A DNA stretch of 64,000 nucleotides from an uncultured Gammaproteobacteria bacterium. Lineage in GTDB: Bacteria; Patescibacteriota; Microgenomatia; Levybacterales; UBA12049. The stretch is taken from contig CAYQEE010000001.1 in the NCBI GenBank assembly GCA_964416445.1, forward strand, positions 131,676-195,675, written 5' to 3'. The notes under the pieces are model-generated. The model was not told the DNA's origin. It saw only the letters and a program-made list of their open reading frames with translations, and ran no database searches. This document shows, piece after piece, positions 9,439 to 15,848 of this stretch. How positions within the stretch are numbered: position 1 is the first letter of the stretch; each line of letters begins with the position of its first letter. The translations under genes were made by a program, and so were the position numbers.

Positions 9439-10875
9439 ATGAGTCAAATAGCAGAAACAAGAGGAACGCGCCATTTAATGGGCAAGTATCTCGCTTCGGC
9501 AGATATAGCTGTCAAACCATTTACCTTACGACATGAAAAGACATATGTAGGTCAGCGTGACGCACAAACTATCAAATTTCTTGAACGATCACTCACAGGC
9601 ATAGCCCTTATTAATCCTGCTTTACAGCAGGCAGCATCTCAGTTGCCTGGAATTGCAGAAGGGCAATTAGTTACGGCAAAACCACTCTTAGATACCTATA
9701 TGCAAGTTGCGTCGGCTCCCAAGTCTGAGCAAACAAGCCAACAATTAGCGGAATTAACGGCGACCATTCTTACAGATACCACTGTGCAAGGAGATTTGCA
9801 GAGTTATATGCGTTTTGTAAAAGCATCTGGAGTAATTGAGGATATCAGTGATATGACGAAAATCATGAGAAAATTTTACGTTGCAAATGCTTTATTAAAT
9901 GATAAAAATACAACAAGTAAACGAAGAGAGCAGATAGCGACGATTAAGAGACAATATCGAAAACTACCAGAAATTAGTGAAGTTGACGCAGAGGAGATTG
10001 TATTACCTTCGAATAGAACTACTCAAAGAGATATTTTGGGAAGAGTTGGTCATGATATCGGTCATACTTTTACTCCATTACAGGGTAATTTAGACATTTT
10101 AAAACTAAAGATGAGAAAACAAGAAGATAAACTAAAACCGGAGGATTATTTATCCTTCTATATTACAACAATGAAAGTATATGAAAAAGCACGAGGGGTT
10201 GATGAATATCTCCAACGCATACCATTTTTATTACGCAATGAAATCCATGTTGAGAATTTAACTATACCGATTGTCAGGGAAATTTTTAACACGCATTATC
10301 TCCAAACATTAATTGATCAAGGAGTTTCTGTAGAAACAGGTGATAAATTAACTCCCGAACAATTTCCAAGTATTAAATGGGAAAAAACGGCAGCAGCTCA
10401 GGTTGCTACGAATTTGGCAAGTAATGTTTTGGAAATTTTCAATGCCAAACATACAAGCTCGCTTCAGGAGAGGAACGAACCTGATGAACGAGCTCCAGAA
10501 GCAATGCCGCAATCGTTGCCTCATCACGTTACTGTTTCTGAAAGAATACTTCAAGGACGTCAATTATATGAAATGTTTCGAGTTTCTTCAGAAATGAATG
10601 AGCAAGGCAATGAATCACTCTTTCCTCCCCAATTTGCAAATCGATCATTTTATGTTCTTGAATTCGTGGATAATGGTCGTGAACTAAACGATTATATCGC
10701 GAATAATGGGTTTCAAGTAGGATTCTCAACAAATGAAGCAACTGAGACGAAACGTCGTGGAGATGGAATTAGTAGACAAGCTGAGTTTTCAAAAAATAAT
10801 TTCGGTATCTTCATTCTTCCCCGGAAACGTGTTGATGGGGTAGGTACCAGTATTTCTGTTATTATCCCTGTATGA
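9439..10875 (+). CDS. Hypothetical soluble protein with degenerate histidine-kinase-like motifs (HisKA-like 'GHDIGHTFTPLQGNLDIL'; HATPase-like 'VDNGREL ... GDGISRQ')
   Basis: A long ORF with no TM segments, flanked by AT-rich intergenic regions. The motif resemblance was judged by eye only. Confidence 0.45.
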   Translation: MSQIAETRGTRHLMGKYLASADIAVKPFTLRHEKTYVGQRDAQTIKFLERSLTGIALINPALQQAASQLPGIAEGQLVTAKPLLDTYMQVASAPKSEQTSQQLAELTATILTDTTVQGDLQSYMRFVKASGVIEDISDMTKIMRKFYVANALLNDKNTTSKRREQIATIKRQYRKLPEISEVDAEEIVLPSNRTTQRDILGRVGHDIGHTFTPLQGNLDILKLKMRKQEDKLKPEDYLSFYITTMKVYEKARGVDEYLQRIPFLLRNEIHVENLTIPIVREIFNTHYLQTLIDQGVSVETGDKLTPEQFPSIKWEKTAAAQVATNLASNVLEIFNAKHTSSLQERNEPDERAPEAMPQSLPHHVTVSERILQGRQLYEMFRVSSEMNEQGNESLFPPQFANRSFYVLEFVDNGRELNDYIANNGFQVGFSTNEATETKRRGDGISRQAEFSKNNFGIFILPRKRVDGVGTSISVIIPV

Positions 10876-12727: not shown

Positions 12728-12988
12728 ATGCAAAAAGAATATTATATAAACGCGAGTGAACTTGGTGATTATGTATATTGTAAACGTGGTTGGTGGTTGC
12801 GATGTAATGGAATAATGACGGGAAGTAATAACGATATGATTCGAGGGACAAATGCTCACATACGTTTATCTCAAGCACTTGATCTGAATAGAAAAAAAAC
12901 AAATATCGCTTGGATAATCATTATACTTGCAATCGGTTTGTTAATGCTGTTACTGAGTATTTTTTTGATGACAAACATGCGGCAGTAA
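12728..12988 (+). CDS. Cas4/DUF83-like PD-(D/E)XK nuclease, N-terminal fragment. It carries the N-terminal Cys motif 'YVYCKRGWWLRC', 'GTNAHIRLSQAL', then one TM helix
   Basis: Motif order matches the Cas4 N-terminus. It ends with a hydrophobic helix. The stop and the next ATG form 'TAATATG'. Confidence 0.5.
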   Translation: MQKEYYINASELGDYVYCKRGWWLRCNGIMTGSNNDMIRGTNAHIRLSQALDLNRKKTNIAWIIIILAIGLLMLLLSIFLMTNMRQ

Positions 12989-12989
12989 T

Positions 12990-13466
12990 ATGTTTTATCT
13001 TATAATTATTACTCTTGGAATTTTTTTATTAGGCATATTTCTTCTCGTATTTACCTCAAACCAAAATCGGTCATTTGGTATTCTTACCAGAAAAAAAATC
13101 TACCAAGATACAGAGGAAAAACCGGGAAAAACATTGTATGCTACAACGCTTCCTCTTAGAGGAAAACCTGATTATCTTATTCAACAAGGAAAGGCAATTA
13201 TTCCCGTGGAAGTAAAAACTGGGAAAACGCCGAATTCTCCGTATATGAATCATAGTATGCAACTTATGGCATACTGTCTGTTGGTTGAGGAGACATTTCA
13301 TCAACGTCCTCTTGGTGGCTACTTACGGTATCCTGAAAAAGAATTTAAATTACTTTATACAGAAGAAGCAGAACAATCAGTAAGAAATCTCGTATGGGAA
13401 ATGATTAAAAATAAAAAAACAAATCAAGAATATTTTTGTAGGCATCCAGAACATAACAAATGCTAA
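12990..13466 (+). CDS. Cas4/DUF83-like PD-(D/E)XK nuclease core. One TM helix is followed by 'GKPDYLI', 'IPVEVKTGK', the QxxxY motif 'QLMAYCLL', and C-terminal Cys 'CRHPEHNKC'
   Basis: RecB-family motifs II and III, QxxxY and the C-terminal cysteines are present in Cas4 order. It is in a different frame from the upstream fragment. Confidence 0.55.
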   Translation: MFYLIIITLGIFLLGIFLLVFTSNQNRSFGILTRKKIYQDTEEKPGKTLYATTLPLRGKPDYLIQQGKAIIPVEVKTGKTPNSPYMNHSMQLMAYCLLVEETFHQRPLGGYLRYPEKEFKLLYTEEAEQSVRNLVWEMIKNKKTNQEYFCRHPEHNKC

Positions 13467-13783
13467 AAAGTAAGGAAAGTCCTCAGGTATCATGTCCACA
13501 TTGACATTTTTTTTGCTGTAACAAAACTTCCACCATACCTTCTAATTTCCCAATTTTTTCAGACATTCGAAAAAGTTCTTTTAATATATGCGGTGGTACA
13601 TCATGAACTTTATGAGGTGGTTGTAGTGGAAGTTTCCTTTGATCTTCAGAAAAAGGTTTTTGCTCAGGCATAGAAGTGATACTAAAGAAAAAATGTAAGT
13701 AATCTATAAGAAAAAGGGAAATTTTTGATATGTAAAGTAACTTAGTGTTTGACAGATAGAGATGATTATGTCATTATTTTTAT

Positions 13784-14206
13784 ATGGTAGATCAAAATGT
13801 TCCGCAGCAAAATACTACTGTAACTGACCCAATAGCACCTTCTGTGCAAACGGATCCACAATCCAGTATGCCACTCCAAGGTGTAGTAACAGAAGATGTT
13901 TTAATGAACCCTCCTCAGCCGGGACAACCAACAGATATCCCTTTCGAACAACAGGATGATTCTGGGGCAAACGCAAATTATATTGAAAATGTTGGTGGTT
14001 CTTTTTTTGATTTATTGAATGATGTACTGAGTAAGCAAGAATTAATGGCAGATATTGCAAAAGAGATGAATGTCACGACATTGAATTGTAGCAAAATTGC
14101 GGAAGGTATCCAAAACAAAATAAAACAAAATCAATTAACAAAAGAAGAAATTGCTTTTATTTTAACAGCTACGTTAGTAGATTTACCTCCTGAAGAACAA
14201 AGTTAA
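13784..14206 (+). CDS. Hypothetical acidic protein
   Basis: A 140-aa ORF rich in Pro/Gln/Asp/Glu. No recognisable domain. Confidence 0.4.
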   Translation: MVDQNVPQQNTTVTDPIAPSVQTDPQSSMPLQGVVTEDVLMNPPQPGQPTDIPFEQQDDSGANANYIENVGGSFFDLLNDVLSKQELMADIAKEMNVTTLNCSKIAEGIQNKIKQNQLTKEEIAFILTATLVDLPPEEQS

Positions 14207-14252: not shown

Positions 14253-15848
14253 TTATGCCTCGATAGCTTTTCCTGTTGTGCCAACAACGGCACCTCCTAA
14301 TACTCCGAGTATTGCAGCTGCCATTGCTAATAATGGATTCAATTTATCTTTATCGGGATCGTCACCTAAGGCTTTAATTTGTTCTCCTATTTGATTATAT
14401 TTTGCCATTAATTCATCGCGACTCATTTCAGTGAGCGGTTTTTCAGCGGCGGCAGGTTTATTTTCCTGAGCTATTTTTTTGTCGATTTGATTCCTCTGTT
14501 GTAAATTAGCTAATTCGTTTTGTTCATCAGTACTTAACGGAGTTTCTTGATCTTGTAATACTTTCATTCGGACTCTATCGTCATCAGATAAGGGAGTATG
14601 ATTCGCTCGTTCTTGCTGTCTGTCCTGATTAGTATTCGTTGCTGTTTCCTGAGCTGGTTCTTTCGCAGCTTTTGCTTCAAGTTGCATTTGTTGCCGTGCA
14701 TATCGTATCGCTTCTGCTCGAGCCTCTGCGAGATCTTCATCGTTTCGAGCCTGAACCATTCGTTGATTGAATTTATCGGTAAAATGACGGCTATTCATTG
14801 CTTGTTCATCAGAGATGACGACTCGTTTTTCCTGACCTGGCTCGCTTTGCGCTTGTTCTCGATGTTGTCTTCGGATTTCGTTAAACGCGCGTTGCCTTGC
14901 TACTTGTAATTCTGCAAAGGATACCTGATCTAATCGCACTCGTTCAGCAACAACCGGCAGTGGCTCGGTATTTTGCTGACCGTTCTCGCCAGAGAGATTT
15001 GGAAGTGCGTCAGTATGAACACCCTCACTCGTATCTGATGAAACGAGATGTAAGTTTACTGTTTCTCGCGCATTTGCTTTCGATCGTATTGAGTTTTGCT
15101 GTAAGTGTGCAAGTCTCTGTTCCTCAGCTCTTTTTTCAGCTCTCATGAGTGAAACCTGTTTGGCTACTTCATCTGCGAACTTTGGATCATTGTAGACATC
15201 CGCTGCCTCTTGCACTAACCCTTGCATCATATCTCGTCTGATTTGTTCTTCTTGAGCTCGAGAAGGCATATTTCCTGTATCTTCCATGATTTGTTCGATT
15301 CGTTGGGTAACTGCTTGGTTTAACTCTGAGCTGGTAAACGCTTGCGATCGAATATCTGCTTGTAATTGTTGTTCGTTATGTTGATTACGTTTTTGACGAA
15401 GACGACAAATATCAATTGCTTCTTTACGTGCATCTTTTCGCTCTTTGTCCGTTAATGTCCTTTTTGTTTCTCCTCGTTTCGCGTCAACAACGGACTTGAG
15501 TTCGGCAGCCACTTCAGCGCGATTGTTCCGAACAAATCGTCTATCTTGACCGGTCAATACTCGAACAGAATCAATTCGTACCACAGTTCGAGACCATTCT
15601 CGGGAAGTTCTTCCTTTCTGAAGCACCTCGCCGGTACGTAATTTTACTAAGCCTTCATGAGCATTTCCTGTATCACGGTCAGTGCGTAATCGCTTTGCAA
15701 CTTGTTGTGCCCACCATTGTTGTGCTTTTTCTTTGAATGAAGGACCTTGTTTTTCAGCAACCTTATCTTTGATTTCTTTTCGCTTGACGAGTTGTTCACT
15801 ACTCATTTGAGGTAGCGGTCGTAGTGGTGTTGGTGCATTATTTGGCAT
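14253..15848 (-). CDS. Hypothetical highly charged (R/E/Q/A-rich) coiled-coil protein with a C-terminal transmembrane anchor
   Basis: 531 aa of low complexity. The C-terminus 'LLAMAAAILGVLGGAVVGTTGKAIEA' is hydrophobic. Local GC is visibly higher than in the surrounding DNA. Confidence 0.55.
   Translation of the reverse strand: MPNNAPTPLRPLPQMSSEQLVKRKEIKDKVAEKQGPSFKEKAQQWWAQQVAKRLRTDRDTGNAHEGLVKLRTGEVLQKGRTSREWSRTVVRIDSVRVLTGQDRRFVRNNRAEVAAELKSVVDAKRGETKRTLTDKERKDARKEAIDICRLRQKRNQHNEQQLQADIRSQAFTSSELNQAVTQRIEQIMEDTGNMPSRAQEEQIRRDMMQGLVQEAADVYNDPKFADEVAKQVSLMRAEKRAEEQRLAHLQQNSIRSKANARETVNLHLVSSDTSEGVHTDALPNLSGENGQQNTEPLPVVAERVRLDQVSFAELQVARQRAFNEIRRQHREQAQSEPGQEKRVVISDEQAMNSRHFTDKFNQRMVQARNDEDLAEARAEAIRYARQQMQLEAKAAKEPAQETATNTNQDRQQERANHTPLSDDDRVRMKVLQDQETPLSTDEQNELANLQQRNQIDKKIAQENKPAAAEKPLTEMSRDELMAKYNQIGEQIKALGDDPDKDKLNPLLAMAAAILGVLGGAVVGTTGKAIEA

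Follow-up and report, generated by a model that had tools for sequence, protein, structure and literature searches.

A predicted two-subunit, membrane-anchored Cas4-family nuclease encoded by two adjacent genes outside CRISPR loci

Cas4 is among the most studied nuclease families of prokaryotic immunity, and many of its solo members have no assigned role. Cas4 relatives are 5'-3' exo- or endonucleases of single-stranded DNA, and in solved Cas4 proteins the ligands of the Fe-S cluster are one N-terminal Cys and three C-terminal Cys residues. That Cas4 has four such Cys is summarised in PMC13621843. In a 2017 survey of the family (Hudaiberdiev et al. 2017, PMC5704561), solo-Cas4 of unknown function were common in candidate phyla, Roizmanbacteria among them, and monophyletic in many Chloroflexi; the survey's supplementary tree places Levybacteria solo-Cas4 on a long branch (PMC5704561). 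The Solo-Cas4 of M. mazei is a soluble oligomer with a [4Fe-4S] cluster (PMC12501428). The text and supplements examined of the 2017 survey (PMC5704561) make no mention of membrane segments or of a split, and no description of a membrane, transmembrane (TM) or split Cas4 was found in the full-text literature searched, whose coverage leaves out most subscription journals. Here we describe a pair of adjacent genes at positions 12,728 to 13,466 of a 64-kb stretch of contig CAYQEE010000001.1 (the window), which an earlier note made from the sequence alone had read as a split, membrane-embedded Cas4-like nuclease with no CRISPR context. That headline was supported on all points tested, and we consider it likely, on the sequence evidence presented below, that two translationally coupled genes encode a two-subunit, membrane-anchored Cas4 / RecB-like PD-(D/E)XK nuclease that acts independently of CRISPR.

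The pair occupies 739 nucleotides (nt) and comprises two open reading frames (ORFs), whose features are listed here by window position, with lengths and positions in amino acids (aa) and hydrophobicity as Kyte-Doolittle 19-residue hydropathy (KD19):

12728..12988, + strand: ORF1 (86 aa), the N-half subunit; the N-terminal helical part of Cas4 and, after it, a predicted C-terminal TM helix, corresponding to Cas4 profile positions 1-60
12779..12781, + strand: ORF1 Cys18, equivalent to the first (N-terminal) metal-cluster ligand of Cas4; invariant in 27/27 aligned pairs and aligned with the 'FCKRQW' Cys of 8d3l_I
12845..12859, + strand: motif I 'GTNAH' (G40 to H44, ORF1); G40 and H44 invariant, G-x3-H in 73/73 ORF1 homologues
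12905..12970, + strand: predicted TM helix 1 (ORF1 aa 60-81), then a 5-residue tail; KD19 maximum 3.20 (aa 63-81)
12986..12992, + strand: junction TAA-T-ATG, consisting of the ORF1 stop, one base and the ORF2 start
12990..13466, + strand: ORF2, the C-half subunit, 158 aa; predicted N-terminal TM helix followed by the PD-(D/E)XK catalytic core
12990..13052, + strand: predicted TM helix 2 (ORF2 aa 1-21), starting at the initiator Met; KD19 maximum 2.93 (aa 4-22)
13161..13172, + strand: motif II 'GKPD' (catalytic Asp61, ORF2); G58, P60 and D61 invariant, motif in 73/73 pairs
13203..13217, + strand: motif III 'PVEVK' (Glu74 and Lys76, ORF2); P72, E74 and K76 invariant, motif in 73/73 pairs
13260..13277, + strand: Q-x3-Y-C 'QLMAYC' (ORF2); Q91, Y95 and C96 invariant
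13437..13463, + strand: C-terminal 'CRHPEHNKC' (ORF2); the conserved part is C150-x-H152-x2-H155, replacing the canonical C-x2-C-x5-C

Both ORFs were recovered as they had been described, in different frames (ORF2 is +1 relative to ORF1) and joined by TAA-T-ATG, with all quoted peptides in place; at such a junction translational coupling of ORF1 and ORF2 is probable. A scan for promoters and terminators around the pair gave nothing better than shuffled sequence. The locus resembles the described solo-Cas4 proteins in its Cas4 profile and fold matches and in being a chromosomal gene locus without cas neighbours, but it differs in architecture: the described proteins are treated as soluble single chains, whereas the window encodes two proteins with one predicted TM helix each, and its clade has C-x-H-x2-H instead of the three C-terminal Cys. 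Rather than the single soluble polypeptide of about 160-220 aa expected of Cas4, two genes were found, with a TM helix at the break in each. The pair shares with CRISPR-associated Cas4 (type I-C 8D3L, type I-G Cas4-Cas1 7MI4 and SSO0001 4IC1), which provided its best profile and structure matches, the same motif order and an N-terminal Cys and C-terminal ligands that would clamp the fold, but it has no cas1 or cas2 partner and no CRISPR, about 50 extra residues, and two polypeptides in place of one.

The relationship to Cas4 (DUF83) was borne out by matches of each half to a separate, complementary part of the Cas4 profile. In profile searches, positions 1-60 of TIGR00372 (cas4) matched ORF1 aa 7-65 (E 2.8e-5), and positions 51-150 matched ORF2 aa 39-138 (E 5.9e-12). 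ORF2 alone exceeded the cut-offs of PF01930 (28.8 bits vs 22.7) and PF12705 (31.7 bits vs 22); ORF1 alone was under the cut-offs of PF01930, PF12705 and TIGR00372, and the 65-bit cut-off of TIGR00372 was reached by the joined halves only, at 66.1 bits. Both halves matched mainly Cas4 among the PADLOC models, with weaker matches of ORF2 to DruK and PDC-S01. When a profile built from 27 joined pairs was compared with the solved Cas4 8d3l_I, profile positions 3-62 corresponded to Cas4 6-65 and positions 152-243 to Cas4 102-192. From the motif I helix to the beta core the family thus has about 50 residues more, a surplus equal in length to two TM helices.

Structure prediction led to the same family. 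An AlphaFold2 model of the joined halves (mean predicted local distance difference test score 77.3, core 85-95; predicted template modelling score 0.65), built on an alignment of 34 rows in which the TM helix of the N-half homologues was misplaced, contained a long helical hairpin formed by residues 35-81 and 87-114. Its best Foldseek matches were Cas4 8d3l (E 1.8e-6), MGME1, Cas4-Cas1 7mi4, ACE1, SSO0001 (4IC1), Dna2 and AdnA, with a Foldseek probability of 1.00 for Cas4 8d3l, 7mi4, 4ic1, MGME1 and Dna2; template modelling scores were low (0.25-0.42) because of the inserted hairpin. Taken together, sequence, motifs and modelled fold indicate that the locus encodes a Cas4-family nuclease.

The RecB-type order of catalytic motifs is kept across the break, with H44 in ORF1 followed by D61, E74/K76 and Q91/Y95 in ORF2, and motif I, motif II (G-x-P-D), motif III (P-x-E-x-K) and Q-x3-Y were all intact in 73/73 pairs. 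We infer from these intact catalytic residues that the pair has metal-dependent nuclease activity. The same fold and catalytic motifs are found in the nuclease domains of RecB and AddB and in Dna2, MGME1 and Exo5, of which MGME1 and Dna2, together with AdnA, were among the structural matches; these proteins differ from the pair in being soluble, without TM segments, and the nuclease of RecB, AddB, Dna2 and AdnA is built as a domain into a large protein or complex that also contains a helicase.

The metal ligands of the window pair depart from those of Cas4. A four-Cys [4Fe-4S] set (one N-terminal Cys plus C-x2-C-x5-C) is not present in the window, which has C18 and C150-x-H-x2-H and no Cys triad, and the canonical triad is present in Chloroflexi members. 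Three combinations accounted for the 73 pairs: a single Cys in ORF1 with C-x2-C-x5-C in ORF2 (57 pairs, Chloroflexi), a single Cys in ORF1 with C-x-H-x2-H in ORF2 (13 pairs, the window's clade), and C-x-C-C in ORF1 with C-x2-C and no His motif in ORF2 (3 pairs, at loci L016, L017 and L018). The ligand patterns of the two halves covary without exception. In the three-pair subgroup the cluster ligands are shifted between the two genes. The window's clade has an altered metal site in addition, and the window probably has a Cys2His2-type site bridging both chains. Of the cysteines quoted in the earlier note, ORF1 C18 and ORF2 C150 are conserved and ORF1 C26 and ORF2 C158 are not; likewise 'CRHPEHNKC' is present at the C-terminus as claimed, but what is conserved in it is C-x-H-x2-H rather than a Cys triad.

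The hydrophobic helix that had been noted at each end of the break was confirmed, both KD19 maxima being far higher than the 1.6 that is the usual threshold for a membrane helix. Across the 73 pairs the ORF1 helix was preceded by a mean of 2.26 Lys and Arg residues in 12 residues and followed by 0.59, with a median tail of 3 aa, and the ORF2 helix was preceded by a mean of 0.05 and followed by 2.89, with a median head of 0 aa. Because of this charge bias, the positive-inside rule predicts that both soluble parts are cytoplasmic and the helices antiparallel, so that the two would behave like a hairpin cut in its outer loop.

These features suggest how one enzyme could be built from two chains. 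ORF1 would supply the N-terminal helical part, the first metal-site Cys, the motif I His and one TM helix, and ORF2 the other TM helix, the motif II Asp, the motif III Glu-x-Lys, Q-x3-Y and the remaining ligands Cys-x-His-x2-His. On insertion the N-terminus of ORF1 would lie in the cytoplasm and that of ORF2 outside, giving two antiparallel TM helices with almost nothing exposed outside the cell; the soluble parts would then meet at the cytoplasmic face and rebuild one Cas4 fold, clamped by a metal site bridging both chains. The halves might instead not assemble, with ORF2 acting as a self-sufficient, truncated membrane-anchored nuclease and ORF1 as an unrelated small membrane protein or regulator, since ORF2 holds motifs II, III and Q-x3-Y and passes the Pfam thresholds alone. 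We regard this as quite unlikely, given that ORF1 is homologous to the N-terminal part of Cas4 that ORF2 lacks, with both its cluster Cys and its motif I His, that the two genes strictly co-occur and their metal-ligand patterns covary, and that both parts are kept in the single-chain relatives described below. How the pair is built, how it sits in the membrane and how ORF1 and ORF2 complement each other are shown by sequence evidence; physical assembly of the halves into one nuclease is what this complementarity leads us to expect.

The earlier note had offered two interpretations of the break, a frameshifted single gene encoding a Cas4-like nuclease with a TM hairpin or a genuine two-gene nuclease, and had proposed a comparison of fused and split versions in sister genomes. 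ORF2 relatives were present in 260 genomes (in a scan of one genome per species), of which 80 were taken for a locus survey that covered 83 non-redundant loci; the genomes were mostly of Chloroflexota class Anaerolineae, with a few from Levyibacteriota, Roizmanbacteria or with doubtful source labels, and the nearest relatives of the window pair were from Levyibacteriota and Roizmanbacteria. An ORF1 homologue lay upstream on the same strand in 78/83 loci (hidden Markov model E ~1e-4 to 1e-38), one more was identified by inspection (L028), the remaining 4/83 loci end at a contig edge, and no fused gene was found among the 83. Searches of protein clusters agreed: a search with the joined sequence returned 741 clusters, nearly all of the top 120 being of 156-185 aa and containing the ORF2 part only, and a search with an N-half profile returned 2212 clusters, of which the top 120 were all of 78-94 aa. 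A search with the single ORF1 sequence found 3 proteins only, the short TM-rich query sharing few words with the index. Many of the small N-half proteins carry the JGI label Cas4.

The spacing of the two genes varied widely. From ORF1 stop to ORF2 start the gap ranged from -7 to +877 nt in the 78 loci, with -7 to +20 nt in 49/78 (all three frame relations, an ATGA overlap being commonest), 39-225 nt in 15 and 572-877 nt in 14 Chloroflexi loci. In 13 of these 14 a whole gene of about 212 aa lies between the halves, L026 having an unrelated ORF there. This conserved gene, on the same strand ('MSVLNKIAFYQNRRDEVPNQELAR...'), occurs at L033 (5224-6000), L034, L036, L037, L041, L043, L054, L056, L068, L071, L074, L077 and L084; its product matched no Pfam or NCBIfam family, had weak HEAT-repeat-like matches in the PDB (2db0 and transportin; E ~0.01), and may be a third partner. 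Three of the 78 upstream homologues, at L030, L035 and L071, are truncated: they are of 36-37 aa or lack the TM helix, beside an intact ORF2, which could reflect assembly error or decay of the N-half. Several public records of metagenome-assembled genomes with close relatives (L006, L007, L008, L010-L013, L015-L017 and L028) go under the label 'uncultured Gammaproteobacteria' or Bryobacteraceae; from the genes they carry and their likeness to Levyibacteriota and Roizmanbacteria, these would seem to be candidate-phyla bins that are wrongly labelled or contaminated.

These data bear directly on whether the break is an error or recent decay. That a single-chain Cas4-like gene with a TM hairpin was broken here by a sequencing or assembly frameshift, or has recently become a pseudogene, could be suspected from the existence of single-chain relatives with two TM helices and from the position of the junction in an AT-rich stretch between two T7 runs. 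Those runs, to which the earlier note had drawn attention, do exist (12960-12966 and 13021-13027, inside Phe-rich TM codons), but there is nothing unusual about them in a window of 36.7% G+C with 1.36 A/T runs of >=7 per kb. Moreover, the 739 nt are identical in assemblies from three separate sequencing runs, the ORF2 frame contains many stop codons 5' of its ATG, the position of that ATG is the same as the start of its homologues in alignment, and all catalytic motifs are intact. The ORFs might be joined into one protein by programmed frameshifting or stop-codon readthrough, as could be expected where stop and start are one base apart and where, as in a few relatives, the ORFs are in frame with a 3-nt gap, but the 78 loci have no conserved frame relation, slippery site or spacing, with gaps of -7, -4, -1, +1, +2, +3 and up to +877 nt. 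Because the genes are split in 78/83 loci in two phyla, with varied junctions and sometimes intervening genes, and because the three assemblies are identical, the split is genuine and the two-gene interpretation is favoured over the frameshifted single gene. Assembly frameshift, recent pseudogenization and conserved programmed recoding are excluded at this locus, the probability left to error or decay, or equally to recoding, being negligible.

A single gene with a TM hairpin, although not what is found at this locus, does exist elsewhere. Exhaustive searching by phmmer with the joined halves as query returned 958 representatives (E <=1e-3), and the top 150 of these were classified: 82 were C-halves with one N-terminal TM helix, the split type, and 36 had the N-terminal motif and the core in one chain. 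By hydropathy, the count of TM helices separating the two parts was even in 29/36 of these single-chain proteins, 13 with two (e.g. P0282, 268 aa), 9 with four (e.g. P0276, 327 aa) and 7 with eight (e.g. P0261, 596 aa), inserted at the site of the break in the split pair. An even count keeps both parts on one side of the membrane, as reassembly of one domain needs. The other 7/36 had 0, 1 or 3 TM helices counted, and some of them may be soluble relatives, merged gene calls or miscounts. The single-chain membrane relatives (e.g. P0282, P0276 and P0261) have the same soluble N- and C-parts as the pair, canonical metal ligands and a housekeeping context, and differ in being one polypeptide, with a real outer loop in the hairpin; no published description of this group was found either. 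The P0261 gene lies on the 3.58-Mb chromosome CP070629.1 beside genes for ribosomal protein L15e and FtsZ, which identify it as archaeal.

Several observations bear on the origin of these forms. Eight TM helices were also counted in P0270, P0272 and P0292 and four in P0268, P0278 and P0289, and one such relative lies at L091 (5001-6791); repeated 'ALxWLxGxxxFLY'-like motifs in the TM segments of the four- and eight-TM relatives suggest that these arose by tandem duplication of the hairpin. P0257 (L089, 5001-5729) is a fused two-TM relative with the C-x-H-P-E-H-N ending of the window's clade, in which other residues ('VPILKKHD', 'ILELMALC') stand in place of motif I, E-x-K and Q-x3-Y; it is thus probably catalytically dead, and a PIF1-type helicase gene adjoins it. 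In a quick, unrooted neighbour-joining tree the multi-TM single-chain forms cluster, and fission and fusion are not separated, although fission of a two-TM ancestor seems the simpler story for the split pair. A broader and rather doubtful proposal is that the split pair and the two-, four- and eight-TM single-chain relatives together make up a widespread class, so far unrecognised, of bacterial and archaeal Cas4-like nucleases that are integral to the membrane, and that their membrane part is more than an anchor and could couple DNA passage or membrane-proximal DNA (in uptake, septal segregation or conjugation) to strand degradation. If this were true, the window version would be an example from nature of two chains that rebuild the fold of a soluble enzyme by pairing their TM helices.

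Independence from CRISPR was also upheld. No cas family was matched by the genes called between about 6 kb upstream and 10 kb downstream of the pair, no tandem or CRISPR-like repeats were found in the 64-kb window, and an Rfam scan of the window returned one tRNA and nothing else, consistent with the claim that cas genes and repeats are missing from the vicinity. The pair therefore lies outside cas loci, as a solo-Cas4 does, and is without the cas1/cas2 genes and array of a CRISPR-associated Cas4. The pair could also be read as a genuine CRISPR adaptation Cas4 that serves a distant cas1-cas2 in trans, which would fit the family membership and the one surveyed locus, on a Roizmanbacteria contig, that has an array beside it. 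On that contig (L009 169-4909, shared with L003) there are a partial Cas12a-like ORF, a canonical 179-aa Cas4, Cas1, Cas2 and a 27-repeat array; the array stops about 800 nt upstream of the pair, and two different Cas4-family genes thus stand side by side. Since this locus already has a canonical cas4 by its cas1-cas2, and the other 82 of the 83 loci and the window are without an array, action in trans is very improbable.

The genes around members of the family are housekeeping or DNA-repair genes. In the window the neighbours are recO, glyS, xseB and xseA (divergent from the pair), then mraZ-rsmH-ftsI. In Chloroflexi the NAD kinase gene nadK lies about 40 nt downstream on the same strand in 37 loci, recN downstream on the same strand in 41 (TIGR00634, 555 bits), and SSB within about 1 kb of the pair in 11. 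Other members adjoin a gene for a PIF1-type helicase (twice), UvrC/Cho with RNase T, LigD_N, a GIY-YIG nuclease or AP_endonuc_2. Between nadK and recN, 32 Chloroflexi loci encode a small conserved protein of about 175 aa (e.g. L021 7428-7956) that has a zinc ribbon (C-x2-C...C-x2-C) near its N-terminus and several TM helices. Because repair genes recur beside members in unrelated lineages, we tentatively favour, with rather less than even confidence, a housekeeping role in DNA-end processing during repair or recombination at the inner membrane face; processing of DNA ends is expected because RecB/AddB, Dna2, MGME1 and Exo5 share the fold and catalytic motifs.

The same architecture could alternatively act on incoming DNA at the membrane, in defence against phages and plasmids or in competence, processing or degrading DNA for recombination or nucleotide salvage. 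A membrane tether would place the nuclease at the entry point of foreign DNA, integrases lie near some members, and candidate-phyla bacteria are thought to depend on scavenged nucleotides. The competence nucleases EndA of S. pneumoniae and NucA of B. subtilis are held at the membrane by a TM segment, as predicted for the window pair, and differ from it in having unrelated folds, a catalytic domain facing outside and a single chain each. However, no defence-island context was seen and PADLOC models gave no match among the window neighbours, no relatives were found among 2.9 million viral contigs (IMG/VR) within the limits of the peptide patterns used, the Chloroflexi linkage is to nadK-recN rather than to competence or defence genes, and no com genes were seen beside any member examined. 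A role on incoming DNA is the less likely of the two, though still a serious competitor of the repair role.

Several points weigh against the interpretation of the pair as a membrane-anchored repair nuclease. Motif I of the window reads H-I, where most relatives have H-E or H-R, and the three canonical C-terminal Cys are missing from the window's clade. The TM helices were scored by KD19 hydropathy, and the modelled protein is an artificial fusion for which the N-half alignment was shallow and unpaired. As to function, the repair role is read from gene neighbourhood; the neighbourhoods are not conserved in the candidate phyla, and the nadK-recN linkage could be synteny inherited within one class.

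The remaining genes around the pair in the window gave few clues. The small ORFs at 13483-13671 (- strand) and 13784-14206 (+ strand), which are called as genes in an independent assembly, had been put forward as possible conserved neighbours; they matched no family and recur at no other locus, so that this suggestion was not upheld. Two large flanking ORFs, one at 14253-15848 (- strand; 531 aa, rich in Gln, Glu and Arg, highly charged and hydrophobic at its C-terminal end) and one at 9439-10875 (+ strand; 478 aa), had no NCBIfam or PADLOC match, and no Pfam match was recorded for the corresponding called genes.

In sum, the architecture is, as far as the literature searched goes, an undescribed one for this family, an integral membrane Cas4-family protein that is here split into two obligate genes. 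The results point to a large clade of solo-Cas4 that is embedded in the membrane and that two phyla encode as a pair of obligate genes, with an extent of at least 260 species-level genomes, 741 C-half clusters and up to 2212 N-half clusters. Annotation should change accordingly, as the 80-aa half is often missed or called hypothetical. For a family with many members lacking a role, the pair offers a testable hypothesis, that of a nuclease confined to the inner membrane face and linked to repair genes, and it would provide a natural model of how fragments can be assembled into an enzyme by a shared metal site and the pairing of TM helices.

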